Source: a virus
Taxonomy: Duplodnaviria; Heunggongvirae; Uroviricota; Caudoviricetes
Length of the DNA stretch: 18,331 nt
IMG/VR virus record: IMGVR_UViG_3300027708_000034
Location: 1-18,331 of that record
Reading direction: 5' to 3' (one strand)
Position numbers and translations under genes: made by a program. How positions within the stretch are numbered: position 1 is the first letter of the stretch; each line of letters starts with the position of its first letter. Positions 1,841 to 13,688 of this stretch are shown here, one piece after another. The notes under the pieces are model-generated. The model had not been told where the DNA came from. It searched no databases and saw nothing but the letters and a program-made list of their open reading frames with translations.

Positions 1841-2077
1841 TTATCTCTTTCTAATTTTCATTCCAACCCAAGTACCACAAAATGCACCTGCTGCTGCTGG
1901 AATCAATAACATATGATTACTATTATACTCTATAATTGCCACAGCCGCAACCACATAAACTATTGTGGCCCAACTGCTGGCCCTTAATACATGTTCCTCA
2001 TGTACAGCCTTTAAATAATATGTATAAAAGACATCAGTAAAGAACATGGCAAAAAAAGCCAATAAGTAATCAATCAT
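1841..2077 (-). CDS. small membrane protein
   Basis: 78 aa with about 3 hydrophobic segments; fits exactly between two tRNAs. Confidence 0.7.
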   Translation of the reverse strand: MIDYLLAFFAMFFTDVFYTYYLKAVHEEHVLRASSWATIVYVVAAVAIIEYNSNHMLLIPAAAGAFCGTWVGMKIRKR

Positions 2078-2082
2078 ATATT

Positions 2083-2156
2083 TGGTACCTCGTTGGAGAA
2101 TTGAACTCCCGTATCCACCGTGTAAGGATGGCGTTCTACCATTAAACTACCGAGGC
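2083..2156 (-). tRNA. tRNA-Val(TAC)
   Basis: Loop CUUACAC, CCA; G-A mismatches at the acceptor/T-stem junction. Confidence 0.9.
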
Positions 2157-2158
2157 TC

Positions 2159-3343
2159 TTAATCTTTACTGAAATAATTATATCCCATATTTTTATCAAC
2201 GATCCTCAACAAGGTCGAACCAAAAATCCAATCACTGCCTGCTGAGTAAAACCCTGCTGCTGAAAGCGCCTTATATTCTTTGACCATGTTAGGAAAGATC
2301 GAACCGTTCTTTAGTCTGGGTACTGAAATGCTTTTTACATAATGCCAAAACTCAGTGTCAAAGTTAGATCCACCATGGTAAATGTAACTCAGCATATCTT
2401 CCAACCCACGGGCTTGAAGTCTAAACTTCTCATTCATAATGCTTTGTGGCATTTCCCTGCCTATGAACCTCTTGAACAAATTGATAACATGTATGTACAT
2501 GTAGATAGAATTTGCTGACAAGGGTTCAAAAAATATTGCCCTATTACCATTTTTCAAAACTCGATCCGAATAAATTTGTTTTGCATAATAGGATTTAAAT
2601 TTGTAATCCACTAACTTTGCTGGATCTATCTCAACATTGAGATATTTTTCTAAATCCTTAACCACAACATCTCTATCCGAAATGCCGTTGTTAAACATAT
2701 AACCATAGGTAGTTCTAGTGGTCAGTGGCACTCTAAACATCCAGCCATGTTCCATGGCTATGTGCCCTGTGTACATTTCTTCATTGTTAGGAGCAACTGA
2801 ATAAACTAGACTTTGATTAACTGGACTACATTTGGAAATCTCATAGTCAACAAAGCTAGTGGGGAATCCCCTGCAATCTATAACGTATTCGAATTCTTCA
2901 GTCCTGCCGTCGACTACAACCTGTGCTGTATCTTCGCCTGGAATGATATCGGACACTGTGCCATGTATTTCGGAAAACTTATCACTGGCCAGTTCATGGA
3001 AGCGTTTGAATAAAAACTCTTTCAGTTTGAAATTGTTGAAGTGTATGGCGTATCCCGAACCATACAATGGGTTCACGAAATCGTTTTTCCTCCAACCTTC
3101 ATACTTGGTGCCAAATTTTAATGTTCCATCAACCTCGGGCAAGTCCTCGATAGTGAACATAGAGCTGGCTTGCAATATGTCAATGAACTGAGGATTGGTA
3201 CTTTCACCGATGCCAAGAATGTTGATCTTAGGATCGTATATTGAAACGATTTCCCATACATCGGATGGGAGATGAGGTAGCAGTCCTGCGATTGAAACAA
3301 GACCTGCTGTACCTGAACCTACGACTGCTATTCTTTTTTTCAT
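2159..3343 (-). CDS. tryptophan-halogenase-like FAD-dependent oxidoreductase
   Basis: IAVVGSGTAG Rossmann motif, GIGEST, GWMFRVPL..R..YGY. Confidence 0.85.
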   Translation of the reverse strand: MKKRIAVVGSGTAGLVSIAGLLPHLPSDVWEIVSIYDPKINILGIGESTNPQFIDILQASSMFTIEDLPEVDGTLKFGTKYEGWRKNDFVNPLYGSGYAIHFNNFKLKEFLFKRFHELASDKFSEIHGTVSDIIPGEDTAQVVVDGRTEEFEYVIDCRGFPTSFVDYEISKCSPVNQSLVYSVAPNNEEMYTGHIAMEHGWMFRVPLTTRTTYGYMFNNGISDRDVVVKDLEKYLNVEIDPAKLVDYKFKSYYAKQIYSDRVLKNGNRAIFFEPLSANSIYMYIHVINLFKRFIGREMPQSIMNEKFRLQARGLEDMLSYIYHGGSNFDTEFWHYVKSISVPRLKNGSIFPNMVKEYKALSAAGFYSAGSDWIFGSTLLRIVDKNMGYNYFSKD

Positions 3344-3353
3344 TATTATTATA

Positions 3354-3427
3354 TGGAGCGGGGTGCGAGAATCGAACTCGCGCTATCAGCTTGGAAGGCT
3401 GAAATCCTACCATTAAATGAACCCCGC
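3354..3427 (-). tRNA. tRNA-Gly(TCC)
   Basis: Loop CUUCCAA, U73, CCA. Confidence 0.95.
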
Positions 3428-3435
3428 ATATCTCT

Positions 3436-3509
3436 TGGTGCCCCACGACAGAATCGAACTGCCATCACAGGATTACAAAACCAGTGTACTACCATTGTAC
3501 TAGTAGGGC
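3436..3509 (-). tRNA. tRNA-Thr(TGT)
   Basis: Loop UUUGUAA; two U-U mismatches in the anticodon stem; CCA. Confidence 0.88.
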
Positions 3510-3515
3510 CATCTA

Positions 3516-3677
3516 TTAAACTAGATTATCCTTGGTAAGCACCTTGGCGTCCCATTGGGCTAGCTTTTCTCTAAATTCATCTTCAGTCAGTTTGTGCCAA
3601 CCGATGCAATGTCCAACTGGACTACGACCGCAACCACATGTAGGTGCTGCTTTAACTGGTTCTGTTTGTGTTTCCAT
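3516..3677 (-). CDS. CDGSH-like small Fe-S/Zn-finger protein (53 aa)
   Basis: Manual translation METQTEPVKAAPTCGCGRSPVGHCIGWHKLTEDEFREK...; CxCx2Sx4CxGxH 3Cys-1His pattern; directly follows rpoZ. Confidence 0.7.
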   Translation of the reverse strand: METQTEPVKAAPTCGCGRSPVGHCIGWHKLTEDEFREKLAQWDAKVLTKDNLV

Positions 3678-3681
3678 TTGC

Positions 3682-3909
3682 TTACCTAATTTTTTTCAAA
3701 TACTCAACGCCAACCTTGCCTTGCTCGATCTCTTTTAGAGCCAACACCACAGAGCTACTGTGATTGGCATTGTCCACAAGGGGCTTACTACCACGACGCA
3801 ATTCACGCACTCTAGTCGCAGCCACTAGCACTAGATTGAATCGATTACCGATCAATCGAACACATAGGTCAGTGTCATTTTGAGTACGATCAAGTTGTTT
3901 TGGTTTCAT
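3682..3909 (-). CDS. rpoZ: RNA polymerase omega subunit homolog (75 aa)
   Basis: IGNRFNLVLVAATRVREL..GSKPLV...VVLALKEIEQGKV matches the RpoZ core; start taken at M44 of the track ORF, just downstream of a promoter. Confidence 0.9.
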   Translation of the reverse strand: MKPKQLDRTQNDTDLCVRLIGNRFNLVLVAATRVRELRRGSKPLVDNANHSSSVVLALKEIEQGKVGVEYLKKIR

Positions 3910-3930
3910 ATTTACTTTCTTTAAAATACA

Positions 3931-3959
3931 AGTATACAACATTTGAAGCAAGTTGTCAA
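3931..3959 (-). promoter_or_regulatory. sigma70-type promoter for rpoZ
   Basis: TTGACA-17-TATACT. Confidence 0.8.
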
Positions 3960-3968
3960 CTGTTATTT

Positions 3969-4052
3969 TGGTGCCCAGGGAGAGACTCGAACTCTCAATC
4001 CTCGCGGCAGTGGCTTCTAAGACCACCGTGTATACCATTCCACCACCTGGGC
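3969..4052 (-). tRNA. tRNA-Leu(TAG), class II
   Basis: Loop CUUAGAA, long variable arm, A73, CCA. Confidence 0.95.
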
Positions 4053-4063
4053 ATTATTCCTTA

Positions 4064-4258
4064 TCAAGCAATCACAGTATCTGGAAACATCTTCTGTGGC
4101 GTACGTTCACTCTTTGGAGTGCGGACTATGATAGCTGCTGATAGTTCAGCTTGAATCATACACGCCTTAATAGAATTACGAAGATTGCTATCAGCTGTGG
4201 TACATAACATACGCTTGGTACGCTTGGACATTTTATAGTTGCTTGTGGGTTTTAACAT
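4064..4258 (-). CDS. hypothetical basic protein (64 aa)
   Basis: AAGGA SD upstream; fills the gap between tRNAs. Confidence 0.65.
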   Translation of the reverse strand: MLKPTSNYKMSKRTKRMLCTTADSNLRNSIKACMIQAELSAAIIVRTPKSERTPQKMFPDTVIA

Positions 4259-4278
4259 TATTTTTCCTTTTTATAATT

Positions 4279-4368
4279 TGGCGGAATGACTGAGACTCGA
4301 ACTCAGAAAGCTGCTTTCGCAACTCGACGGATTAGCAATCCGCTCCAATACCATTATGGGACCATTCC
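4279..4368 (-). tRNA. tRNA-Ser(GCT)
   Basis: Loop UUGCUAA, long variable arm, G73, CCA. Confidence 0.95.
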
Positions 4369-4377
4369 AAAATCTTT

Positions 4378-4983
4378 TTACATCTGTTTACCCCAACACC
4401 ACGGAAGTGGTGTTACGTCGGGAAATGCTTCGAGCACTGCTCTTTCAACATCATTGTTAGGTGTTGCGGGATTAAAATCATGTCCTGCGAGATAACCTCC
4501 TGGACGAACTTTCGGAGCCCATGCAGCAATGTCTGCTTTGACATTTTCGTAATCATGTGACGCATCAATAAACACAAAATCTAAACTACCATCTTCATAG
4601 AGTTCAGCAGCAGCTAGACTGGTCATACGCACAGGGTTGTAGTAACCTTCCACAGGTTTCATATTTTCTACAAAATGTTCGTACAATGAATTTGAAACGA
4701 CATATTCATCCTCTTGGTGATCCTCTTCATCACTGCCTTGCCAAGTATCGACACAATCAAATTTTATGTCTTTGCCTGAATTGATAATTTCCACAGCCAT
4801 ACATGCTGCGCTTTTACCTTTCCAAGTACCGATCTCTACGAAATGATACTGTCTAGTGGATGATGGCGCGAACCCTTCACCAGTAAATACCATCTCCCCG
4901 TTGGGCACAGATTTAACCATTTGCTGGTATAGTGCATCTATACCATCTGCCCAACCGTGTATATTATTATAAAAGTGTTCCAT
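4378..4983 (-). CDS. class I SAM-dependent methyltransferase (Methyltransf_24-like)
   Basis: VEIGTWKGKS, VDTW, DFVFIDASHDY, KVRPGGYLAGHD. Confidence 0.9.
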   Translation of the reverse strand: MEHFYNNIHGWADGIDALYQQMVKSVPNGEMVFTGEGFAPSSTRQYHFVEIGTWKGKSAACMAVEIINSGKDIKFDCVDTWQGSDEEDHQEDEYVVSNSLYEHFVENMKPVEGYYNPVRMTSLAAAELYEDGSLDFVFIDASHDYENVKADIAAWAPKVRPGGYLAGHDFNPATPNNDVERAVLEAFPDVTPLPWCWGKQM

Positions 4984-4998
4984 GTTTTCCTTTTTGTT

Positions 4999-5107
4999 TG
5001 GTACGACCGGTAGGGTTTGAACCTACAAGAGCAAATGACTATGTCCTTGCCCCTACCCTCGCCGAGTATCCCCGGTCCGGAGGTCTGCCTATTCCACTCA
5101 CGGTCGT
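4999..5107 (-). ncRNA. aberrant 109-nt tRNA-like RNA with no canonical anticodon loop
   Basis: ACGACCG/CGGUCGU-A-CCA acceptor, T arm GUAGG-UUCAAAC-CCUAC, Leu-type D loop, CCGGG-GAUA-CUCGG hairpin in place of the anticodon loop, long variable arm. Confidence 0.75.
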
Positions 5108-5113
5108 AAGTAT

Positions 5114-5142
5114 ATTGTATACTTATACACCCTGCGTGTCAA
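5114..5142 (-). promoter_or_regulatory. sigma70-type promoter; predicted +1 about 5107
   Basis: TTGACA (5142-5137), 17 nt, TACAAT (5119-5114). Confidence 0.75.
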
Positions 5143-5866
5143 CTGTTTTGGATTTAACATGAGCTAACTCTTTTTCAATAAAAGTCCATGCTCGTTGCAG
5201 TAGCCTCTTATAATGCGGGCTTGCTGTCTTTTCTGGATAATAATCTGCGATGTCTTTAAGCTCAAATGCCTTGTTTATGTATGCTGACATTTTTGTCCTA
5301 AACGCAGCAGGCTCTAAATTGGCCAGCTTGGGTATTATGGGCACTAGCACATTTAATGCTTCGACAAACCTGGAGTTGATCTCTGCAGGTTGTGCTTGAT
5401 AAGCACCATCCTTATCTGCTTGATGCTGCGGGCTTCTTGCTGTACGATATCGCGAGCTTTGATTAGCCCTATTGGATGACTTCATATCATCCATAGCATG
5501 TCTTAATTCGTGTGCTATAACGCTACGCATACGATTAGTGCTCAAGTAATCCGAATTTAATGAAATTGCTTTCTCCATCGGATCCCATTGTCCAAAATGG
5601 CTATCTGCTGGTGTAGCACGGCCATGTAGTCTACGTGCTAGATCTACTATAGCTTCGTCTGAACTTAATTCAATTCTCAAACTATCGAACGCAGGTATTG
5701 GAGTATCGAATAAATCGCCAATCCTACCGATATGTAAAACACCAGTTTCATCATAGTCTAACTCCGTATCAGCGTATTGCTGTAAGTAGCTGAATATAGA
5801 GTCGGCTAAACTAATGATAGCACGATCCTCATCAGCAGTTTCTACGATAAGTTCACGAATTTTCAT
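5123..5866 (-). CDS. HExxH (zincin-like) protein
   Basis: 247 aa with VIAHELRHAMDD; ATAAATA late-type promoter upstream. Confidence 0.75.
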   Translation of the reverse strand: MKIRELIVETADEDRAIISLADSIFSYLQQYADTELDYDETGVLHIGRIGDLFDTPIPAFDSLRIELSSDEAIVDLARRLHGRATPADSHFGQWDPMEKAISLNSDYLSTNRMRSVIAHELRHAMDDMKSSNRANQSSRYRTARSPQHQADKDGAYQAQPAEINSRFVEALNVLVPIIPKLANLEPAAFRTKMSAYINKAFELKDIADYYPEKTASPHYKRLLQRAWTFIEKELAHVKSKTVDTQGV

Positions 5867-5871
5867 GTACT

Positions 5872-5878
5872 TATTTAT
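5872..5878 (-). promoter_or_regulatory. T4-like late promoter variant
   Basis: ATAAATA 5 nt upstream of the ATG at 5866. Confidence 0.55.
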
Positions 5879-5883
5879 TGCAT

Positions 5884-5973
5884 TGGCGGAGCGTGATGGA
5901 ATCGAACCATCACCGGCTTCTAACCAGTGGAACAGTTTTCAAGGCTGCTTGCTCACCATGAACTCCACACTCC
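5884..5973 (-). tRNA. tRNA-Ser(TGA)
   Basis: Loop CUUGAAA, long variable arm, G73, CCA. Confidence 0.92.
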
Positions 5974-5981
5974 ATAACTCT

Positions 5982-6068
5982 TGGCGGAAGAATGAGGAAT
6001 CGAACCCCAACCTCTATGAAGTCCCTCTGCTTTCGAAACAGTGCCAGGCCCAGCCCAGATAATCTTCC
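5982..6068 (-). tRNA. tRNA-Ser(CGA), divergent D arm
   Basis: Loop UUCGAAA, long variable arm, G73, CCA. Confidence 0.8.
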
Positions 6069-6072
6069 ATAA

Positions 6073-6164
6073 TGGTACCAGCGGAGGGAATCGAACCCTC
6101 TCAAGAAGGCTAATCTGGCCCTAAAAGTCTTATAAGGACTCTCTGACTTCCAAGTCTCGCTGGC
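6073..6164 (-). tRNA. atypical tRNA with TAT (Ile) anticodon, mini D arm and long variable arm
   Basis: GCCAGCG/CGCUGGU-A-CCA; D arm ACU-UGGA-AGU; AGAGUC-CUUAUAA-GACUUU; T arm GAGGG-UUCGAUU-CCCUC. Confidence 0.75.
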
Positions 6165-6174
6165 AATAAATCCA

Positions 6175-6290
6175 TTTGTTATATTGTGGGTTTTGTCAGT
6201 TTATTGGCCCACAACCTCACGACGCTATGGCAACTATGTTGCCGCACTGCTCGATACCACCTCCGCTTGCGCGGCGTCCGGAATAACAAA
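6175..6290 (-). ncRNA. candidate structured spacer RNA
   Basis: UUUGUUAU/AUAACAAA closing stem; GACGC/GCGUC; CCGC-GCAA-GCGG; GGCAAC-AUA-GUUGCC; UUGUGGG/CCCACAA. Confidence 0.55.
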
Positions 6291-6296
6291 ATACAA

Positions 6297-6405
6297 CAGG
6301 ATGCATTTTACTTTTTTGACCTGTGTGCTACCATTACACTACTAGCCGGAATCGAACCGGACCACTGGTTTGGATTATGAGTAAAAGGTTGCTGTTAGCA
6401 TCCTA
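6297..6405 (-). ncRNA. ACAGCAA-motif RNA copy B, carrying a circularly permuted tRNA-like domain (YrlA-like)
   Basis: AGGAUGC/GCAUCCU stem plus ACAGCAA; T arm (6360-6346) precedes D arm (6339-6325). Confidence 0.75.
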
Positions 6406-6410
6406 AAAAC

Positions 6411-6485
6411 TGGTCCGGCGTAACAGAATCGAACTGCTATTTAGGGAGTAGAAATCCCCTGTATTATCCATTATACGAACGCCAG
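6411..6485 (-). tRNA. tRNA-Arg(TCT)
   Basis: GGGGA-UUUCUAC-UCCCU, D loop GGAUA, CCA. Confidence 0.92.
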
Positions 6486-6490
6486 TTATT

Positions 6491-6565
6491 TGGTCTCTCC
6501 GGCAGGAATCGAACCTGCATCCCATTCTTAGGAGGAATGTGTTCTATCCATTGAACTACAGAGAG
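6491..6565 (-). tRNA. tRNA-Arg(CCT)
   Basis: Loop CUCCUAA, CCA. Confidence 0.95.
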
Positions 6566-6577
6566 GTAAATATTTGT

Positions 6578-6742
6578 GTGAGAACATACGAAAATCAAAC
6601 ACCCGGTGGACTTTGTTTTCACCTATCACTTGAAAATGATGTTGTTTATATTCTTGTCTATGACATCCACGATGTCACGTATTTTCAAATGAAATATTTT
6701 ACCAAAGTAAATTCTGCACTACGTTGGATCAATAATCTATAA
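6578..6742 (+). CDS. possible small hypothetical protein antisense to the array
   Basis: GTG-start 54-codon ORF filling an otherwise unstructured gap; no clear SD. Confidence 0.3.
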   Translation: MRTYENQTPGGLCFHLSLENDVVYILVYDIHDVTYFQMKYFTKVNSALRWINNL

Positions 6743-6743
6743 C

Positions 6744-6818
6744 TGGCGGGCCCTGTAGGAATCGAACCTACATCGCAAGTTTCGAAGACTCGTATTCTAT
6801 CCATTGAACTAAGAGCCC
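6744..6818 (-). tRNA. tRNA-Arg(TCG)
   Basis: Loop CUUCGAA, CCA. Confidence 0.95.
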
Positions 6819-6826
6819 GTTGTGTA

Positions 6827-6900
6827 TGGAGCGGGTAGCGAGAATCGAACTCGCGAATAAACCTTGGCAAGGTTTCAGGTTACCATTACATCATACCCGC
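6827..6900 (-). tRNA. tRNA-Gly(GCC)
   Basis: Loop UUGCCAA, U73, CCA. Confidence 0.95.
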
Positions 6901-7331
6901 ATATATTCATAATTGACTGTAGTAGAGTTTTCTCTAAAAACAATCGCACCATTCTTCAAATGGAATCTTTTGGCCATCTCAGTAGGCGGACTCAATGTCA
7001 CGAATCTAGTGATAGTGGGTTTGTTCTTTTTAAGGTAGTCTACAGCATTAAAGATTAGATCTCTACCTGCGCCCGGAGCATAACTCCAGATGGTGTAAAA
7101 TGTTGCCACAGTTGGCTCTGCTACATCAGTGAATAATTCATCTTCAGTCGAAGGAACTTCAACTCTGTAGCTGACACAGGTCACAGCCTTGACTGTGTCA
7201 TCTGTGCTTTTTAGAACAAAAATGTCTCTGTTGTCACCTATCCTAAAATCATGAGGTATGTTTGGCCTCACAGGATCTTGTTTTAGGAAACCAAAAAACT
7301 GATCAGTATTGGATTTAATTAGGTGCAGCAT
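6891..7331 (-). CDS. GNAT-like protein resembling the malonyl-CoA decarboxylase catalytic domain (146 aa)
   Basis: ATFYTIWSY..GAGR.LI...FVTLSP...AKRFHLKNGA parallels MCD motifs (FYSI, TLSP, ARFHLxNGA); start reassigned to ATG 7331. Confidence 0.65.
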   Translation of the reverse strand: MLHLIKSNTDQFFGFLKQDPVRPNIPHDFRIGDNRDIFVLKSTDDTVKAVTCVSYRVEVPSTEDELFTDVAEPTVATFYTIWSYAPGAGRDLIFNAVDYLKKNKPTITRFVTLSPPTEMAKRFHLKNGAIVFRENSTTVNYEYMRV

Positions 7332-7357
7332 GGTAAAAGTCTTTATATCATTAAAGC

Positions 7358-7365
7358 TATTTATA
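7358..7365 (-). promoter_or_regulatory. T4-type late promoter
   Basis: Exact TATAAATA, 26 nt upstream of ATG 7331. Confidence 0.7.
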
Positions 7366-7372
7366 ATAATTT

Positions 7373-7450
7373 TGGAGTAACGGGTGAGATTTGAACTCAC
7401 GGGGTTAGAGTTTTGCAGACTCTTGCGTTGGACCACTCCGCCACCGTTAC
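7373..7450 (-). tRNA. tRNA-Cys(GCA)
   Basis: Loop CUGCAAA, U73, CCA. Confidence 0.95.
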
Positions 7451-7461
7451 ATATTATGTTA

Positions 7462-7537
7462 CCATATAGAAACACGCTGCTGTTGCTACATCACAGTACA
7501 GGCTGATCAAACCTCTTACCAGTATGTTTCTATATGG
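7462..7537 (-). ncRNA. spacer hairpin RNA pairing with the CCA of tRNA-Leu(TAA)
   Basis: Perfect 13-bp inverted repeat ccatatagaaaca / tgtttctatatgg. Confidence 0.55.
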
Positions 7538-7618
7538 TACGGGTGGCCGGACTCGAACCGGCATGCATCGCTGCGGCAGATTTTAAGTCTGCTGTGTATA
7601 CCATTCCACCACACCCGC
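7535..7618 (-). tRNA. tRNA-Leu(TAA), class II
   Basis: Loop CUUAAAA, long variable arm, CCA. Confidence 0.95.
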
Positions 7619-7670
7619 AAATACTTTTTAAATTTTAAAGAACAGTGTTAATTGCTTAACGTATGTATAT

Positions 7671-7699
7671 AGTATAACATCGTTCTGCGGCTGTGTCAA
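7671..7699 (-). promoter_or_regulatory. internal sigma70-type promoter
   Basis: TTGACA-17-TATACT with extended TG. Confidence 0.8.
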
Positions 7700-7700
7700 A

Positions 7701-7774
7701 TGGTTCTCCTAACAAGAATCGAACTTGTAATTGCACTTTACCAAAGTGCTGGTATGCCATTTACCTATAGGAGA
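7701..7774 (-). tRNA. tRNA-Thr(GGT)
   Basis: Loop UUGGUAA, CCA. Confidence 0.95.
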
Positions 7775-7778
7775 GTAT

Positions 7779-7856
7779 TGGTACCCTAGGTCAGATTCGA
7801 ACTGACACGATTCTCCTTTTGAGAGAGACGCCTCATACCAATTGGGCTACTAGGGC
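7779..7856 (-). tRNA. tRNA-Leu(CAA) with short variable loop
   Basis: UCUCU-CUCAAAA-GGAGA, 5-nt variable region AUCGU, A73, CCA. Confidence 0.85.
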
Positions 7857-7865
7857 ATGTAAATT

Positions 7866-7939
7866 TGGTAGTTCCTGAAAGAATTGAACTTTCGTCTTCA
7901 CCGTGTCGAGGTAGCGTTCTGCCATTAAACTAAGGAACT
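7866..7939 (-). tRNA. tRNA-Val(GAC), C33 variant
   Basis: Loop UCGACAC, CCA. Confidence 0.85.
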
Positions 7940-7943
7940 AAAT

Positions 7944-8020
7944 TGGTACCTTCGGGCGGATTCGAACCCCCAACCACCTGCTTCTAAGGCAAGCCGCACT
8001 CCCAATTAGCGTACGAAGGC
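7944..8020 (-). tRNA. tRNA-Leu(TAG) with short variable loop
   Basis: CUUGC-CUUAGAA-GCAGG, variable region UGGUU, A73, CCA. Confidence 0.85.
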
Positions 8021-8046
8021 ATTATTTTATATCACGGTAGTTCTAA

Positions 8047-8247
8047 CTACTTATTAACATTTTTCTTTGGCATGTGCATTCCGCACATGTTTTTGAGTAC
8101 ACCAATTAATTTTGGTTTTCCCCAATCTTTAGCGCATTCTTGCCACTTCCAAAAATCACCTTCAAACTTTGGGATAGGTTTCCCGTCATGATCCAATGCA
8201 TAACCACTTGAGTGATGATGACACGATTGACAATTTTTTTCGGCCAT
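8047..8247 (-). CDS. small Cys/His-rich hypothetical protein (66 aa)
   Basis: AGGAGA SD; CxxCHHH...C...C. Confidence 0.6.
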   Translation of the reverse strand: MAEKNCQSCHHHSSGYALDHDGKPIPKFEGDFWKWQECAKDWGKPKLIGVLKNMCGMHMPKKNVNK

Positions 8248-8266
8248 AATAAGTCTCCTACTTGAA

Positions 8267-8352
8267 TGGTGCTCTGAGTGGGACTCGAACCCACACCTGT
8301 TAGGTCACAACGTTCTCAACGTTGCCGGTCTACCAATTCCCTGCACCAGAGC
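8267..8352 (-). tRNA. tRNA-Leu(GAG), class II
   Basis: Loop UUGAGAA, long variable arm, CCA. Confidence 0.93.
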
Positions 8353-8358
8353 ATATAG

Positions 8359-8511
8359 GTTTTCGAGCCGCCAACTATCTTTCTCAAGGACTCATTGGTT
8401 TGTCTCGTATGAGAGAGTTTTGCTTGACCCGATACTGCTACTGGTGTGTCATGCTCAAGAAATAGGGCACTAGCGTACAGGGGACTCGATCTCTACGTCT
8501 ATCTCGAAACT
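8359..8511 (-). ncRNA. candidate structured spacer RNA
   Basis: GUUUCGAG/CUCGAAAAC closing stem; CUUGA/UCAAG; UCUC-AUAC-GAGA; ACUC/GAGU. Confidence 0.45.
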
Positions 8512-8629
8512 TGGTGTCGCAGCCGGGATTCGAACCCGGATCTCTTCCTTGATAATGGAATTTGATTGTGCTGACTGTATCCCGGGCGGGATAACCTTTA
8601 TAAGCGTCCTACCATTAGACCACTGCGAC
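8512..8629 (-). ncRNA. 118-nt tRNA-like RNA with an insertion replacing the anticodon arm
   Basis: Perfect GUCGCAG/CUGCGAC-A-CCA, D arm GUCU-AAUGGUA-GGAC, T arm CCGGG-UUCGAAU-CCCGG; middle has UAUCCC-GCCC-GGGAUA and UUCC-AUUAUCAA-GGAA. Confidence 0.8.
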
Positions 8630-8635
8630 ATTGAC

Positions 8636-8710
8636 TGGTGGTACTAAGTGGACTCGAACCACTAACACTCTCCGTATGAAGGAGGAAGACTACCATTGTC
8701 CTATAGTACC
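8636..8710 (-). tRNA. tRNA(CAT), elongator Met or Ile2
   Basis: Loop UUCAUAC, A73, CCA; identity cannot be resolved by eye. Confidence 0.85.
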
Positions 8711-8715
8711 ATGTA

Positions 8716-8802
8716 TGGAGGAAGATAACGGAATCGAACCGTGCCCCGTTTCCGAAGCGAACAACTTTCCAAGTTGCTTAGTGTCCAACACTTCTATCTT
8801 CC
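8716..8802 (-). tRNA. tRNA-Ser(GGA), U73
   Basis: Loop UUGGAAA, long variable arm, short D loop, CCA. Confidence 0.85.
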
Positions 8803-8807
8803 ATGAT

Positions 8808-8883
8808 TGGTGCAACCTCCAGGGATCGAACCTGGTTCAATGGCTCTTCAGACCACCGCTATGACCACATCAGCTAAAGTTGC
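8808..8883 (-). tRNA. tRNA-Phe(GAA)
   Basis: Loop CUGAAGA, CCA. Confidence 0.95.
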
Positions 8884-8892
8884 ATAATAAAA

Positions 8893-8950
8893 CAGGATAG
8901 CATTTTGGTTTCATTTACAGTGAAAATTTTAATTTGCTGTTGCTATCCTA
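8893..8950 (-). ncRNA. ACAGCAA-motif RNA copy C, with a Tyr anticodon stem-loop
   Basis: AGGAUAG/CUAUCCU; UUUCA-CUGUAAA-UGAAA. Confidence 0.75.
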
Positions 8951-8993
8951 AAAAAGAAAACCACCGTGTACAACTATGTTGCAGAGACGGTGG
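8951..8993 (-). terminator. intrinsic terminator after the methyltransferase gene
   Basis: CCACCGU...ACGGUGG hairpin followed by UUUUCUUUUU. Confidence 0.7.
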
Positions 8994-9010
8994 CCATAAA
9001 TTATTGGCGA

Positions 9011-9718
9011 TTATTTTTTAATAACTGCCATGAAATAACCATTGTGCCATTTACTGGTAGGACCAGCAAACCCCTCAGGTGGATGGGTATTATCTGTTGT
9101 AGTTCGAACTTCAATGCTAGACACGATCTTGTTGCCCACTGTCTCTATTGCTGCCAGTGTGCCGTTTCTAACACCTTCCCAATTCCAATCATCTACGATA
9201 AGTACGTATGTGTCGTCGAGTGCTTCTTGAGCAAGAGAAATACCTAAATATTGATCACGTTCGGCATGTGGACCATCGAATAGATATACATTGAATTTAC
9301 CAATTTTCGAATAATCTACGACGGCAAAATCACTTTCGATACATTGAACATCAACTCTCTCATTTTTAAATATGTTGATATTTTCAAAGAATTTAGTCCG
9401 TGGACTACCAAACTCTCGATCCCAATTAAATGGATCCCAGTTGTCAATGCACAGAACCTTACAAGTGTTACCATACATAGCAGAACATGCGGTGCTGCCT
9501 GTCCAACTACCAACTTCTAAATACCTAGCATCGGGAGTTAGTTCGACTAACTTATTAATAAATTTTCTGTATTGATATCCGCTTTGGCCATATAAGGCAA
9601 ATAGGCTATCGGGTAATTTTGAATTGTTTTCTTCAGAAAATTCGTATGCTGTTTTCAATCTAGCGGATAGTTCGTTATCCCAATCCCCAGACAGTTGTGT
9701 AGTTAAAGTAGTTGCCAT
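9011..9718 (-). CDS. class I SAM-dependent methyltransferase (Methyltransf_24-like)
   Basis: YLEVGSWTGST, CIDNW, YLFDGPH, LIVDDWNW; AAGGA SD. Confidence 0.9.
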   Translation of the reverse strand: MATTLTTQLSGDWDNELSARLKTAYEFSEENNSKLPDSLFALYGQSGYQYRKFINKLVELTPDARYLEVGSWTGSTACSAMYGNTCKVLCIDNWDPFNWDREFGSPRTKFFENINIFKNERVDVQCIESDFAVVDYSKIGKFNVYLFDGPHAERDQYLGISLAQEALDDTYVLIVDDWNWEGVRNGTLAAIETVGNKIVSSIEVRTTTDNTHPPEGFAGPTSKWHNGYFMAVIKK

Positions 9719-9740
9719 GCTGTTCCTTGTTTAAGCATTC

Positions 9741-9747
9741 TATTTAT
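9741..9747 (-). promoter_or_regulatory. T4-like late promoter variant
   Basis: ATAAATA upstream of ATG 9718. Confidence 0.5.
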
Positions 9748-9756
9748 TTTTCTGTT

Positions 9757-9831
9757 TGGCGTACCCCCTTGGATTTGAACCAAGCCTAACGGTTTTGGAG
9801 ACCGACGTGCTGCCGCTGACACTAGGAATAC
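9757..9831 (-). tRNA. tRNA-Trp(CCA)
   Basis: Loop CUCCAAA, G73, CCA. Confidence 0.95.
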
Positions 9832-9836
9832 ATATT

Positions 9837-9913
9837 TGGTGCGACCGGAGAGATTCGAACTCCCGACTCCTAAGTTCGTAGCCTAGTACTCTATCCAACT
9901 GAGTTACGGTCGC
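9837..9913 (-). tRNA. tRNA-Arg(ACG)
   Basis: Loop CUACGAA, CCA. Confidence 0.95.
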
Positions 9914-9920
9914 ATTAATT

Positions 9921-9995
9921 TGGTACCTGGTGTAGGAGTCGAACCTACAACATTCCGCTAATCGGGCAGACGTTCTTCCACTGAACTAACCAGGC
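9921..9995 (-). tRNA. tRNA-Ile(GAT), C33/U37 loop variant
   Basis: UCUGC-CCGAUUA-GCGGA, CCA. Confidence 0.8.
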
Positions 9996-10004
9996 ATTAA
10001 ATTT

Positions 10005-10079
10005 TGGTAGCCTACCATGGAATCGGACCATGGACCTACGCCTTATCAAGACGGTGCTCTACCACTGAGCTAGTAGGCC
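10005..10079 (-). tRNA. tRNA-Ile(GAT)
   Basis: Loop UUGAUAA; T loop UCCGAUU; CCA. Confidence 0.92.
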
Positions 10080-10086
10080 AAATTGT

Positions 10087-10162
10087 TGGGGTGCCTTACC
10101 GGTATCGATCCGGTACTACCGCTTTCACAGAGCAGGGTGCAGGCCACTACACTAAAGACACC
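10087..10162 (-). tRNA. tRNA-His(GTG)
   Basis: G-1:C73, loop CUGUGAA, T loop AUCGAUA, CCA. Confidence 0.92.
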
Positions 10163-10281
10163 ATATATAAAAACACATTCGTTTCCTGACTTTACGGCGG
10201 TAGTGCCCTACATCTTTGGGATAGCCCCTGCGTCCAGTTGCCAGGTATCCAGTTTGCCGTTGAATGTGTTTTTATATATGG
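10161..10281 (-). ncRNA. spacer RNA closed by a perfect 20-bp stem
   Basis: ccatatataaaaacacattc / gaatgtgtttttatatatgg; internal ACGGC/GCCGU, GUAG-GGCA-CUAC, GGG-GCUAU-CCC. Confidence 0.65.
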
Positions 10282-10354
10282 TAGGACTGCCCGGACTCGA
10301 ACCGGGAACTGGCAGATTAAAAGTCTGCTGTGATCACCATTTCACCACAATCCC
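10279..10354 (-). tRNA. tRNA-Lys(TTT)
   Basis: Loop CUUUUAA, CCA. Confidence 0.92.
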
Positions 10355-10359
10355 ATATA

Positions 10360-10435
10360 TGGTCCCTGGCGACAGATTCGAACTGTCACCTCATCGGTTA
10401 AGAGCCGAGTACGCTACCATTAACGCCAGCCAGGG
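10360..10435 (-). tRNA. tRNA-Lys(CTT)
   Basis: Loop CUCUUAA, CCA. Confidence 0.93.
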
Positions 10436-10501
10436 TTGATTGCATATTAAATTGTCTTTAATGTGCCAACCCTAGACCATATACAGGATCCAAGATTGAC
10501 A

Positions 10502-10525
10502 CTATCGTTTCGCTGAACGTTTCAT
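10502..10525 (-). CDS. putative regulatory mini-ORF MKRSAKR
   Basis: AAGGAG SD at 10532-10537; ATG AAA CGT TCA GCG AAA CGA TAG; followed by competing hairpins. Confidence 0.6.
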   Translation of the reverse strand: MKRSAKR

Positions 10526-10557
10526 GTCGTTCTCCTTGTTAAAAAATTAAAAACTCG

Positions 10558-10633
10558 TGGCAGGGGAGATGGGATTCGAACCCATGATGACGATTTCAAA
10601 GACCGTTGCCTTAGGCCACTAGGCGACACCCCA
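10558..10633 (-). tRNA. tRNA-Gln(TTG)
   Basis: Loop CUUUGAA, U1:U72 mismatch, G73, CCA. Confidence 0.92.
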
Positions 10634-10643
10634 ACAAAATAAA

Positions 10644-10706
10644 CAGGATAGATTTTTACTGGTTGAATTAAAAGTTCAGAGTATAAATTTTGCTGTTACT
10701 ATCCTA
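10644..10706 (-). ncRNA. ACAGCAA-motif RNA copy D, with a Lys anticodon stem-loop
   Basis: AGGAUAG/CUAUCCU; UGAA-CUUUUAA-UUCA. Confidence 0.75.
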
Positions 10707-10711
10707 AAACT

Positions 10712-10786
10712 TGGCTCCCCAGCGTGGGATCGAACCACGGACCAATTGGTTAACAGCCAACTACTCTACCGCTGAGCTACTAGGGA
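10712..10786 (-). tRNA. tRNA-Asn(GTT)
   Basis: Loop CUGUUAA, G73, CCA. Confidence 0.95.
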
Positions 10787-10790
10787 ATAA

Positions 10791-11130
10791 AATTCTGCGA
10801 AAATGTTATGAGGGCTCTTACCCCACTGTTGTTTGTATAGGTTGCGCGGCCTATACGTCCCGGACACATTTCCTGACCCGGCAGTGTTTACTTTGTGGCT
10901 CTTGCTTTCCACTTGATTCTTACTTATTAAATTTGAGAGTAGTTCCACCCATATTATTGGAACCATTCACCTTAGTATATAAAGCCGGCAAGGTCTCGGT
11001 ACGCCACTTGGGATACTTGACAAAGGTGCTCCGATGCGTTTACGGGACTCGAACCCGTCCTTCTTTTTCATTAGTCGGCTCTTCGAAGAAGCCTTCTAGC
11101 GAGTCTTTCTCTTGCTAACACTCTCAAAAC
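10791..11130 (-). ncRNA. long structured spacer (one about 340-nt RNA or two RNAs) containing an orphan T arm
   Basis: UUUGAGAGU/ACUCUCAAA; ACGGG-UUCGAGU-CCCGU; GUUCCA/UGGAAC; CACUG/CAGUG junction; GUAUAGG/CCUAUAC. Confidence 0.55.
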
Positions 11131-11131
11131 T

Positions 11132-11240
11132 TGGTGGATTGTAAGGGACTTGAACCCTTGTCAGACCAAGAGTGCGGTGGCGCACACTCGATAATGCTCC
11201 TACGGCTATTCACCGTGCATGGGACCAACCTTGACAACCC
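11132..11240 (-). ncRNA. aberrant 109-nt tRNA-like RNA
   Basis: GGGUUGU/ACAAUCC-A-CCA, T arm AAGGG-UUCAAGU-CCCUU, bulged arm ACGG-UGAAUAG-CCGU, 7-bp variable stem. Confidence 0.7.
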
Positions 11241-11247
11241 ATAAAAT

Positions 11248-11318
11248 TGGTGCACCTGACAGGAATCAAACCTGTCTGCGTTTGGCTTCAAATCCAACTC
11301 GCAATGTCAATCCAGCGC
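11248..11318 (-). pseudogene. D-arm-less degenerate tRNA-like element
   Basis: T arm ACAGG-UUUGAUU-CCUGU, bulged acceptor stem, ACCA end; anticodon ambiguous. Confidence 0.55.
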
Positions 11319-11324
11319 ATAACT

Positions 11325-11400
11325 TGGCGTCCCATAGCGGATTCGAACCGCTGTGAATACCGTGAAAGGGTACTATCCTAGGCCTCTAGATGAATGGGAC
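11325..11400 (-). tRNA. tRNA-Glu(TTC)
   Basis: Loop CUUUCAC, G73, CCA. Confidence 0.95.
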
Positions 11401-11406
11401 ATAAAT

Positions 11407-11501
11407 TGGTGGGGAATATTGGAATCGAACCAATCAAGTTTGATTTTGCGGTACATATTCTAATACAGAATACAGGTGCTTCACCTTGAAGCGTATTCCC
11501 C
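11407..11501 (-). ncRNA. 95-nt tRNA-like RNA with 8/4 (or 7/5) stems and a 5-nt anticodon loop
   Basis: GGGGAAUA/UAUUCCCC-A-CCA; D arm GCUUC-AAGGU-GAAGC; UAUUCU-GUAUU-AGAAUA. Confidence 0.7.
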
Positions 11502-11507
11502 ATTAAC

Positions 11508-11585
11508 TGGTCTGTGTGGTAGGATTTGAACCTACGATTTCTCACTTCCAAGGCGAGTAGATTAACCAGACTTTCTCACACACAG
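11508..11585 (-). tRNA. tRNA-Pro(TGG), second copy
   Basis: Loop CUUGGAA, CCA. Confidence 0.9.
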
Positions 11586-11593
11586 ATAAAACT

Positions 11594-11669
11594 TGGTATC
11601 GCGTACGGGAATCGAACCCGCCTACGTAAGTTGAAAGCCTACTGACCTAGCCCAGAAGTCCAACGCGAT
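11594..11669 (-). tRNA. tRNA with TTC (Glu) anticodon and atypical body
   Basis: Loop CUUUCAA, A1-U72, A73, CCA. Confidence 0.8.
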
Positions 11670-11678
11670 ATAATAAAA

Positions 11679-11732
11679 CAGGATACATTTTCTTTTATAG
11701 CAAAAAAGTTAAAAGTTGCTGTTAGTATCCTA
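11679..11732 (-). ncRNA. ACAGCAA-motif RNA copy E, with a Ser(GCU)-like anticodon stem-loop
   Basis: AGGAUAC/GUAUCCU; CUUUU-UUGCUAU-AAAAG. Confidence 0.72.
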
Positions 11733-11736
11733 AAAC

Positions 11737-11811
11737 TGGCGACCCCACGGAGAATCGAACTCCGATATCCCACTAGACAGGCGGGTATAATAACCACTAT
11801 ATGATGAGGCC
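11737..11811 (-). tRNA. tRNA-Asp(GTC), U37 variant
   Basis: Loop CUGUCUA, G73, CCA. Confidence 0.92.
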
Positions 11812-11817
11812 ATAACT

Positions 11818-11892
11818 TGGTGCTCCGTGAAGGAATTGAACCCTCTTCTGACGCTTACAAGGCGCCTGCATCGCCAGCAATGCTTACAGAGC
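11818..11892 (-). tRNA. tRNA-Thr(TGT), second copy
   Basis: Loop CUUGUAA, CCA. Confidence 0.92.
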
Positions 11893-11897
11893 AAACT

Positions 11898-11973
11898 TGG
11901 TGGAGGATAACGGATTCGAACCGTTTGCTCCTGGTTGCAAACCAGGTGTGTTAGCCAAGTATACCAATCCCCC
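11898..11973 (-). tRNA. tRNA-Ala(TGC)
   Basis: G3:U70, loop UUUGCAA, CCA. Confidence 0.95.
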
Positions 11974-11981
11974 GAATACAT

Positions 11982-12086
11982 TGGTGGGTATCCTACTTTC
12001 CACCTATCGGACCTGTAACGCTATCAGGCTGCGGCTTCATGTGTAAACACCATGAACAATGTTTGCGTTAGTTCCTGCTATCACCC
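11982..12086 (-). ncRNA. ACCA-terminated non-cloverleaf RNA
   Basis: GGGUG/UACCC-A-CCA terminal stem; UUCAUG-GUG-UUUA-CAC-AUGAA and CCUG/CAGG hairpins; no T loop. Confidence 0.55.
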
Positions 12087-12132
12087 ATCGTCACTAACAA
12101 CCGTTGGACATAATTGCTTATGTCATCTGCTT

Positions 12133-12216
12133 TGGTGGAGGGTGATGGATTTGAACCATCGCGATGTTACTGCCGAATTTACAGTCCGGTGCTTTCGACC
12201 TCTCAGCCAACCCTCC
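12133..12216 (-). tRNA. tRNA-Tyr(GTA), first tRNA of the array
   Basis: Loop CUGUAAA, class II variable region, CCA. Confidence 0.95.
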
Positions 12217-12245
12217 AATTTATTAACACACTGTTACCAATGTGT

Positions 12246-12320
12246 ATATTAAAACAAACTGTCTAGCTATGCTCCGACAACATCTTCCGTAGATGCCCGT
12301 GCGCCAGTTTGCTTTAATAT
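12246..12320 (-). ncRNA. candidate hairpin RNA
   Basis: 16-bp closing stem (one G-U); CAUCU-ACGGA-AGAUG. Confidence 0.5.
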
Positions 12321-12341
12321 GACGAATTTTTTTATCTACAA

Positions 12342-12419
12342 GAAGATAAGCCATCCTCGTCACCGCCCGTTTGCAGCATGTTTATAGTGCGCTGCCAGGT
12401 CCTCGTTACCTGTATCTTC
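12342..12419 (-). ncRNA. candidate multi-hairpin RNA just after the attenuator terminator
   Basis: GAAGAUA/UAUCUUC closing; CAGGU-AACGAGG-ACCUG; GCAGC/GCUGC. Confidence 0.45.
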
Positions 12420-12426
12420 ACACTCG

Positions 12427-12461
12427 AAAAAGCAAAACCCCAGGGTGTTTAGTCCTGGGGT
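12427..12461 (-). terminator. intrinsic terminator of the putative attenuator
   Basis: ACCCCAGG (12461-12454) / CCUGGGGU (12444-12437) followed by UUUGCUUUUU. Confidence 0.8.
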
Positions 12462-12486
12462 CCTTTGGAGTTAGCGTGTATTTGTG

Positions 12487-12633
12487 TTACACTACAATCT
12501 CCTGGGACCCCGGGGTATTCCCCTCTGGTGTGCGATCATATGAGAGACTATTAATCGCTAACCAAGCAGAGGGCATAAAGCCTGCCTGTTTGGCTATAGA
12601 GCAATGTTGTCTAATATACGATACGCTTTTCAT
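12487..12633 (-). CDS. putative attenuator leader peptide (48 aa, all 20 amino acids)
   Basis: MKSVSYIRQHCSIAKQAGFMPSAWLAINSLSYDRTPEGNTPGSQEIVV; GGAAAG upstream of ATG; lies between promoter and terminator. Confidence 0.7.
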   Translation of the reverse strand: MKSVSYIRQHCSIAKQAGFMPSAWLAINSLSYDRTPEGNTPGSQEIVV

Positions 12634-12691
12634 TTTACTTTCCAATTTACCTTTAAGTTTCATACACTGCATTATTGCTGCGTATGTGTTA

Positions 12692-12720
12692 ATTATACAT
12701 TTATTTAGTCCTGCTGTCAA
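12692..12720 (-). promoter_or_regulatory. sigma70-type promoter heading the tRNA array
   Basis: TTGACA-17-TATAAT (consensus). Confidence 0.85.
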
Positions 12721-12799
12721 CCGCTTTCTACATTTTTGACAAAAATTTTTAAATTATTTTTCGTCTATGTTTCTGTGGCTTCTAACAAAACATAGCTCT

Positions 12800-12828
12800 A
12801 TTGTATAGTAGTTCTGCTGCCTTGTCAA
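12800..12828 (-). promoter_or_regulatory. tandem upstream sigma70-type promoter
   Basis: TTGACA-17-TACAAT. Confidence 0.75.
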
Positions 12829-12857
12829 CATCTATTTTGTTGTATTTTCACAACAAT

Positions 12858-13688
12858 TTAGTATTGTTGATTGTGCGGGAAATCTTTGATATCTTGAGAG
12901 GCCTGTTCGTACAAGCATTGATTCGAAGTCGACAACTTACCACTCTTTTGCATATAGTGCCAGCCAGTTGTGATTATATCGTTACCACACCACCATCCAT
13001 TATCGATGTTATATCTAAACCAATATTTAGGTGCTATGGTAAATTTGCTGTTATTGTTGAGCCATGCACCCCACCAGCAAAATGTGGAATTGACTATAAT
13101 CAAGTACCTAGCCTGCGTGACCACATACATATCATCTTTTTGTCCAAAGTGATAGGCAGGGAATCCTGGAAAAAACCTATTAGCTTCATCAACATCATTG
13201 GTAATAACCACAAATTTCATATTGGGATTAATTTTACGCATTTCGTTGATTGAATCGTGGTAGTATTGCGGCGGCAAATATAAGAAATGAACTCCCCTGT
13301 AGTCTTCACCGCGGAAGTTAATTACGCATGTATCTTCATCTAATAGTTGATTGACTAAATTCACATTGGGGTTTATTTGTGTGAACCATTGTTGGATGTT
13401 GCGCTTATTGTTGATGATGTATTTTTCAGTTTGCCACCAACCGTGTATCCTTGTATTATCTTCGACTTTCCAAATTTCCGGATCGTATAATTGTTCCCAT
13501 CCTTCTTTTTCAAAATAAATTCTATCGACTTGAGAGTGCTCTACTCCGAGGTCTGCTTTAAAAATATCTCTGCCTAAAAAATTTCTAGGAATATGGTATT
13601 CGAGTCCACGTGATTCTGCCACTGTCCTACCAACGGCATACATCCATAGATGATTTCCAATTCTTCCGCCTAAATGAACACTAATCAT
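12858..13688 (-). CDS. alpha-1,2-fucosyltransferase-like protein (GT11)
   Basis: GGRIGNHLWMYA, GWWQTEKY, FRGEDY, IVNSTFCWWGAWL; start reassigned to MISVHL. Confidence 0.85.
   Translation of the reverse strand: MISVHLGGRIGNHLWMYAVGRTVAESRGLEYHIPRNFLGRDIFKADLGVEHSQVDRIYFEKEGWEQLYDPEIWKVEDNTRIHGWWQTEKYIINNKRNIQQWFTQINPNVNLVNQLLDEDTCVINFRGEDYRGVHFLYLPPQYYHDSINEMRKINPNMKFVVITNDVDEANRFFPGFPAYHFGQKDDMYVVTQARYLIIVNSTFCWWGAWLNNNSKFTIAPKYWFRYNIDNGWWCGNDIITTGWHYMQKSGKLSTSNQCLYEQASQDIKDFPHNQQY

Follow-up and report, generated by a model that had tools for sequence, protein, structure and literature searches.

A putative ribosome-mediated attenuator before the tRNA gene array of a large lake phage

What controls the expression of a large array of phage tRNA genes? 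Transfer RNA (tRNA) genes are usually viewed as promoter-controlled, and the deployment of large phage tRNA arrays bears on host shut-off and on tRNA-cleaving defences. The question is raised here by an 18,331-nt stretch of DNA, hereafter the window, which forms the start of a 122.6-kb IMG/VR record (IMGVR_UViG_3300027708_000034, judged 34% complete) of a large phage from lake water. On its minus strand, on which all window features described below lie, two tandem promoters are followed by a 48-codon open reading frame (ORF), an intrinsic terminator and an array of tRNA genes. An earlier note on this DNA had proposed that the ORF and a hairpin overlapping the terminator constitute an attenuator of the trp/his type, which would respond to the shortage of any amino acid and control the whole array. 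Our analysis indicates that the element is probably a ribosome-mediated transcription attenuator, placed before the tRNA array and sensing the decoding of all amino acids. Comparative evidence backs all the structural premises of the attenuation proposed in the note: an open frame, two folds, their covariation, and a tRNA array following in 48 of 50 loci.

The anatomy and conservation of the element, its covariation and the selection for a complete amino-acid set were all computed in this study. The leader peptide led to 15 viral loci, and an alignment-based search to 70; in metagenome contigs 169 further stretches matched, of which 80 were retained. The comparisons rest on 50 distinct viral versions, 38 further distinct metagenome peptides and 9 divergent members.

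The putative antiterminator and the terminator

The 3′ part of the leader can fold in two ways. Region 1 (GGGGUCC, 12505-12511, codons 41-43) is the 5′ strand of the base helix of a long hairpin (12457-12511), the putative antiterminator, and pairs with region 2 (GGACCCC, 12457-12463). The base helix is extended inwards by the pairing of GGAG (12502-12499) with CUCC (12470-12467) and is topped by an apical hairpin that contains the stop codon. Region 2 is common to this hairpin and to an intrinsic terminator (12427-12461), which consists of an 8-bp stem (12461-12454 with 12444-12437), a 9-nt loop and the U tract UUUUGCUUUUU, ending at 12427. The overlap of the two structures had been described in the earlier note, and the folding data bear it out. 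The leader RNA folds better than its shuffled versions (z = -4.6), and its minimum free energy (MFE) structure contains the GGGGUCC:GGACCCC helix, not the terminator. The antiterminator is likewise part of the MFE structure of the free leader in all 50 viral versions, with calculated energies of -18 to -30 kcal/mol, as compared with -10 to -14 kcal/mol for the terminator.

The pairing is conserved through sequence change, a point that the note had proposed to test in orthologous leaders. Among 97 distinct 3′ segments, region 1 reads xGGGYYC and region 2 reads GRACCCy, with 7/7 pairs retained, and no related leader lacks the antiterminator. Pairs were counted by motif anchoring, since the MAFFT alignments (A3 and A6) shift region 1 by 1-2 columns. 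The outer pair of the helix is G-C in 42 versions, A-U in 49, G-U in 6 and A-C in none, and its state changed at least 10 times on the tree. In addition, L033 carries the double change GGGUUC/GAACCC, and L007 represents a wobble intermediate. Because the variable base y of region 2 also pairs with a G in the terminator stem, it changes only to suit both folds. The terminator itself retains an 8-10 bp GC-rich stem and a U tract in all versions, with compensatory variants in L029 and L050. Judging from these patterns, the antiterminator and the terminator would be mutually exclusive, and both folds appear to be maintained by covariation.

The sequence between regions 1 and 2 is much less constrained in its letters than in its ability to fold: the 79 distinct inner segments always form a hairpin (mean z = -3.2). 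Past E37 the relatives read GGGUCC in different frames (..PGS.. or ..RVR..), and the stop codon usually lies 14-15 nt behind region 1, within the apical hairpin. Since the frames differ while both GGGUCC and the stop position are kept, the 3′ part is constrained on the RNA and on the site at which the ribosome stops, not on the peptide. Two further candidate features were set aside. A regular-expression count of the closing pair of the apical hairpin gave G:C in 53, G:U in 7 and A:U in 2 cases, but also A:C in 4 and others, and only the persistence of the apical hairpin is claimed here. A helix formed by CCCUCUG and CAGAGGG within the ORF of the window was, by eye, not kept in the relatives and was dropped.

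The position of the switch relative to the ORF was illustrated in silico by masking a 28-nt ribosome footprint on the window leader. A ribosome on codons 1-37 leaves the antiterminator as the predicted fold, and a ribosome on codons 38-48 or on the stop codon leaves the terminator. The masked fold changes exactly after codon 37, where the list of amino acids is completed. This model is crude, as it depends on the assumed footprint and allows impossible helices around the ribosome, and it serves as an illustration only. The gap between the E codon and region 1 is only 7 nt in many relatives, where the switch would therefore take place one codon earlier.

The ORF and its complete amino-acid set

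The 48-codon ORF reported in the earlier note is present at 12487-12633 and ends with TAA at 12489-12487. It is preceded by a purine-rich tract resembling a Shine-Dalgarno (SD) sequence (UUGGAAAG, 12638-12646). The mean duplex energy of this tract with the anti-SD sequence is -3.8 kcal/mol in 50 leaders, versus -1.4 kcal/mol for random ATGs. The ATG is invariant among the relatives, whose ORFs are 46-53 codons long. All complete versions, about 97 distinct ones, keep an open frame, even though the distance from the ATG to the E codon ranges from 36 to 39 codons. The ratio of nonsynonymous to synonymous polymorphism (pN/pS) is 0.62 in the leader frame versus 0.84 and 1.12 in the other two frames. 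These sequence comparisons support, without proving, that the leader ORF is translated.

Codons 1-37 (12523-12633), which are the proposed sensing part according to the composition and the footprint model, contain all 20 amino acids, in agreement with the count in the earlier note. Ten residues are present there as a single copy. There are no codon runs; the commonest residue, Ser, has six scattered copies in this part, and Ala accounts for 4 of the 48 residues of the whole peptide. In the long ORFs of this genome, all 20 residues are found in 1.6% of 48-residue segments and in 0.18% of 37-residue segments (range of the latter background, 0.18-0.33%). The ORF also uses 37 distinct codons, including the six Ser and the four Ala codons, and the comparison with random 48-codon segments that the note had called for shows that only 0.25% of them contain at least 37. 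Given the peptide, however, such a diversity is ordinary (p = 0.33 under uniform synonymous choice and p = 0.15 under genome codon usage). The count made in the note is thus correct, but its emphasis on the six Ser and four Ala codons carries no weight by itself. As a signal of its own, codon diversity had a mean z of only +0.8 (uniform synonymous choice) or +1.3 (genome usage) and was not used. The match of leader codons to the phage anticodons was also uninformative, with 94% of the codons readable, the same as genome-wide.

A single leader with this composition is unusual yet not decisive; the decisive evidence is its conservation in relatives. The complete set is present in 47 of the 50 distinct viral peptides, and the remaining three are without one residue each. 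It was also found in 33 of the 38 further metagenome peptides and in 8 of the 9 divergent members, in which the core motif has changed. By the E of the DRTPE motif, within 36-39 codons, 43 of the 50 viral versions are already complete. The expected numbers were obtained by simulation, in which each alignment column evolved independently on the FastTree phylogeny with its own composition and maximum-likelihood rate. For the whole ORF, 24 ± 6 complete leaves were expected (maximum 43 in 2000 runs), as compared with 47 observed; for the first part, 17 ± 6 were expected (maximum 35 in 1500 runs), as compared with 43. The excess in the first part holds at halved rates, and at quarter rates p = 0.015. 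This excess arises because rare residues move instead of disappearing. For example, Cys occupies at least 6 different positions and its set of columns changes at least 13 times on the tree; that of His changes at least 9 times. In L007, L025, L029, L106, L116 and the L133 group, Tyr has been lost from SLSYDR yet is present elsewhere in the peptide. Cys, His, Tyr and Lys, in short, relocate rather than vanish. From these sequence patterns, the 20-amino-acid content appears to be selected, not merely inherited, and the amino-acid diversity that the note had proposed to follow in orthologous leaders is conserved.

The peptide itself does not just drift, as the test outlined in the note would have had it: the core W..SLSYDRTPE is strongly conserved (pN/pS 0.34), with nearly invariant fourfold sites in TCA, ACA and CCA. 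The whole stretch from W24 to E37 (12523-12564) is near-invariant, including the synonymous sites of TCA, ACA, CCA, GAT and GAG. Its Leu and Arg codons vary solely in ways that preserve a small hairpin of six pairs inside the ORF (12530-12548, codons S29-T35), in which no double changes were seen. Because the variable sites keep this pairing, the hairpin explains part of the conservation of the core. It could be a pause hairpin that synchronises the ribosome and the RNA polymerase.

The tRNA array and its transcription

The tandem consensus promoters described in the earlier note rank first and second among the sigma-70 matches of the window. P1 (TTGACA-17-TACAAT, 12800-12828) agrees with the consensus at 11 of 12 positions and P2 (TTGACA-17-TATAAT, 12692-12720) at all 12; transcription from P2 would start near 12685. 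In each of the 50 distinct viral versions the leader is preceded by two or three tandem near-consensus promoters, and every relative has a P2-type promoter at a distance of 77-95 nt before the ATG. In 22 of the 50 (L019-L086) there are three such promoters, about 85-100 nt apart, an arrangement that recalls the stacked promoters of rRNA operons. Directly after P2, the leader transcript begins with a 5′ stem-loop of six pairs (12661-12686), which bears a CAGCAA-type motif on the loop side and covaries in the relatives, with changes on both sides of the stem.

ARAGORN predicts 40 tRNA genes in the array, the first of which, for Tyr, starts at 12216, 211 nt past the terminator. The intervening spacer (12217-12426) is strongly structured (z = -4.85), and close relatives share it in part. 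A tRNA array on the same strand begins 192-961 nt past the terminator in 48 of the 50 distinct loci, the other two loci ending too early, and the order of the tRNAs varies among loci. A promoter with at least 10 of 12 consensus positions in the gap between the terminator and the tRNAs was seen in 9 of the 50 loci only. Within the array of the window there are four internal promoters with 11/12 matches each (7671-7699, 5114-5142, 3931-3959 and 477-505). Consequently, the later parts of the array and the interleaved protein genes can be transcribed independently of the leader switch. The first block of 24 tRNA genes (7701-12216) has no other near-consensus promoter, and only these 24 clearly depend on the switch, given the promoters at 7699, 5142, 3959 and 505. 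The claim of the earlier note that the switch controls the whole array is thus an overstatement.

Six RNA libraries contain parts of this region, and four lake metatranscriptomes from four studies were compared. The data are assembled contigs, the ends and levels of which are not trustworthy, and stretches without contig cover were not counted as evidence. In run X17, a 222-nt contig with a depth of 47 reaches from a point shortly before the ATG as far as the terminator (12439-12656), and its flanks are almost bare. In two other runs the terminator is bridged by contigs (12366-12538 and 12306-12459). Taken together, the contigs fit, if weakly, a mixture of terminated and read-through RNA. Contigs from two of the metatranscriptome studies end exactly at 12366, one of them beside Illumina adapter sequence, which suggests an RNA end or processing site in the structured spacer.

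The protein genes interleaved with the tRNAs span 769-9718. They include a tryptophan-halogenase-like gene (2159-3343), two Methyltransf_24 genes (4378-4983 and 9011-9718) and a weakly M78-peptidase-like gene (5123-5866). Upstream of the leader are GT11, GT2-like, DUF5672 and epimerase genes. In the related locus L015, ARAGORN reports a permuted tmRNA-like gene (L015:1178-1609) about 1.4 kb upstream of the leader.

The INPHARED collection of cultured phages yielded no match to the element or to its neighbouring genes by blastn, or to the peptide by tblastn. A peptide-pattern scan of bacterial and archaeal genomes was also without a match. A DNA-pattern scan of prokaryote genomes gave one match only, L087 (JBBAKF010000113.1), a 6.2-kb contig in a Polynucleobacter metagenome-assembled genome, which is either a weak hint to the host or a phage contig that was mis-binned. 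No second copy of the terminator motif was found in the 122-kb record. A covariance search of 12000-13000 against Rfam 15 returned tRNA only, and other matches were at chance level: the best non-tRNA score, that of the rnk leader, was 18.5 bits, far under its threshold of 55, and neither the T-box nor the amino-acid operon leader models came near the gathering score. The leader peptide has no match in Pfam.

Proposed mechanism, alternatives and known attenuators

The following mechanism is proposed. The strong tandem promoters would produce a leader RNA of about 260 nt. If the leader is untranslated or slowly translated, the antiterminator hairpin would form and RNA polymerase would read into the tRNA genes. 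A ribosome moving in step with the polymerase would instead enter the last 11 codons and the stop codon. Because these lie in the 5′ half of the hairpin, a ribosome finishing the leader should hold the antiterminator open; GGACCCC would then pair downstream, the terminator would form, and transcription would end before the tRNAs. Every amino acid, in many cases as a single copy, is encoded within the first 36-39 codons, so that the ribosome should be slowed, and read-through increased, whenever any one charged tRNA is scarce. Once transcribed, the phage tRNAs would accelerate the decoding of the leader again, which amounts to negative feedback. Candidate triggers are the decay or loss of host tRNAs in infection, tRNA-cleaving defence nucleases and amino-acid starvation. 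In this scheme we infer the translation of the ORF and the kinetic coupling, as well as the direction and the physiological trigger of the response. A further-reaching proposal, to which we would give about even chances, is that the leader is a universal decoding sensor with one test codon per amino acid in 36-39 codons. Depletion or cleavage of any tRNA would then open the transcription of replacement tRNAs, making a self-correcting supply and counter-defence circuit within a wider class of leader-gated phage tRNA arrays.

Several observations weigh against the proposed attenuator. The core W..SLSYDRTPE is conserved far beyond the need of a composition sensor. This conservation points to a further function of the core, possibly as a peptide of the arrest type or through a peptide or RNA acting in trans. 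The complete set is not universal, since some versions are without Val, Lys, Cys or Leu, and L029 is without an internal Met. Nor does codon diversity rise significantly above expectation. If the footprint extends from -15 to +12, a ribosome stalled at the E codon would already mask region 1 in the many relatives in which the two lie close together, and under this crude model only 17 of the 50 versions would expose all 20 amino acids; the sensing of Glu in these relatives would thus hinge on a few nucleotides of the assumed footprint. Nine loci have a possible gap promoter, and phage-specific promoters may exist besides those scanned for with the sigma-70 consensus. Finally, the RNA evidence consists of assembled contigs, and DNA may be present in RNA libraries.

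Four other explanations of the locus were considered. The unit might be a small phage gene of the ordinary kind, equipped with promoters and a terminator of its own and coding for a working microprotein, with the proximity of the tRNAs and the 20-residue content being incidental. The promoter, the SD-like tract, the ORF and the terminator are indeed all there, the core is under purifying selection (pN/pS 0.34), and in one metatranscriptome the unit is represented by an abundant short RNA. Nevertheless, we consider this explanation unlikely. The complete set is far above the site-independent expectation, with Cys, His and Tyr relocating repeatedly, and the RNA is conserved over the last 10 or so residues although these are read in different frames. 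The hairpin in which the stop codon always lies covaries and competes with the terminator, and at most loci the array is without another strong promoter. In addition to the lack of a Pfam match, AlphaFold with the 50-sequence alignment gave no confident fold (predicted local distance difference test score 55, predicted template modelling score 0.19). The same switch geometry would equally suit an arrest-peptide attenuator, in which the core stalls the ribosome on one signal, be it a metabolite, a factor or a defence activity, so that this signal, not the supply of all amino acids, sets the read-through; in keeping with this, the core is preserved at both the amino-acid and the codon level and ends just before region 1. 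Such a sensor gives no reason for Cys, His, Lys and Val to be retained through relocation in the variable N-terminal part. Moreover, the W-to-P distance differs among relatives (12 or 14 residues), and divergent members alter the core (for example, WSCETISLSNDR) yet retain all 20 residues, which makes an arrest peptide improbable as the main explanation. The W-to-P spacing may resemble that of the TnaC arrest peptide.

It is also conceivable that the terminated leader RNA, of some 220-260 nt, or else its peptide, functions in trans, with attenuation being secondary or absent. The attenuator RNA rnTrpL and the peptide peTrpL of the Sinorhizobium trp system are reported to act in this way, and dual-function attenuators have precedent (bioRxiv 10.1101/606483). 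The leader folds strongly (z = -4.6), the nucleotides of the core are highly conserved, and the high-depth short RNA contig covers exactly the leader unit. On the other hand, there is no Rfam match and no known target, and the complete amino-acid set and the constant link with a tRNA array would be left unexplained. We assign a low probability to action in trans as a replacement for attenuation, although such action is compatible with, not opposed to, an attenuator. The last explanation is that the long hairpin is a mere 3′ stabiliser or a context for translation termination, the terminator being simply leaky and the overlap without regulatory meaning. Stable 3′ hairpins are common in phage genomes, and the terminator alone is standard. 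This explanation is very hard to reconcile with region 2, in which the common base (C/U) changes only to suit both partners, with no A-C among 97 versions and at least 10 state changes, or with the presence of the antiterminator in all versions though the inner sequence differs in 79, and we regard it as highly improbable. A ribosome-mediated attenuator that senses the decoding of all amino acids thus remains our preferred reading of the locus.

How does such an attenuator compare with known systems? In the classical enterobacterial leaders trpL, hisL, pheL, leuL, thrL and ilvL, one to three amino acids are sensed through runs of the cognate codons, and the genes controlled are biosynthetic. 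The phage leader shares with the trp/his type a short leader ORF and mutually exclusive hairpins and, in the proposed mechanism, the selection between them by ribosome position, with termination favoured when the ribosome reaches the end. It differs by having no runs, one or few codons per amino acid, and tRNA genes as the presumed target. Furthermore, untranslated leaders of the trp/his type mostly terminate through 1:2 pairing, whereas the free phage leader RNA is predicted to fold into the antiterminator. T-box riboswitches act without an ORF, through the direct binding of one uncharged tRNA. They report tRNA charging through a terminator/antiterminator switch and adjust translation-related genes, as the phage leader would. 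Unlike them, the phage leader has a conserved ORF at its centre, no specifier or T-box motif and no match in Rfam.

Leaders that sense antibiotics provide another parallel. In bmrB-bmrCD of Bacillus subtilis (PMC4191407) and in mef/mel (PMC4335068), drug-bound ribosomes cause leader attenuation upstream of resistance genes. Both resemble the proposed phage attenuator in that transcription attenuation responds to a general slowing of translation on the leader ORF, and differ from it in relying on specific peptide contexts, without a complete amino-acid set and without tRNA genes.

The closest precedent is the whiB7 (wblC) attenuator of mycobacteria and other Actinobacteria, which likewise has an upstream ORF (uORF) near the promoter, tens of codons long and mixed in composition. 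When the whiB7 uORF is translated efficiently, an intrinsic terminator forms, whereas slow translation or stalling gives an antiterminator and read-through. It was established experimentally that the amino acids contained in the uORF determine the starvations to which it responds; the uORF of Mycobacterium smegmatis contains every amino acid except Cys (PMC10274678). The whiB7 element is a host element that serves a transcription factor, whereas the phage leader is unrelated to it in sequence and precedes tRNA genes. The whiB7 uORF is rich in Ala and varies in the residues that it lacks, whereas the phage leader keeps the full 20 in 36-39 codons. Also, the products of the phage unit, the tRNAs, would feed back directly on the step that is sensed, which is not the case for whiB7. 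The phage leader is therefore an analogue of the whiB7 attenuator, not a member of it; it belongs to neither the whiB7 nor the trp/his family and has no homology to either. The papers found by full-text searches describe no attenuator for phage tRNA arrays, nor any control of tRNA genes by leader-peptide attenuation. Within these papers the statement of the earlier note that it knew of no described phage equivalent stands, but the principle has a precedent in the whiB7 uORF (PMC10274678).

If the proposed mechanism is true, a textbook mechanism would have been put to a new use, as a natural general sensor of decoding, from which a compact reporter of translation stress could be derived. It would also explain how phages may carry near-complete sets of tRNA genes without the cost of expressing them constantly.

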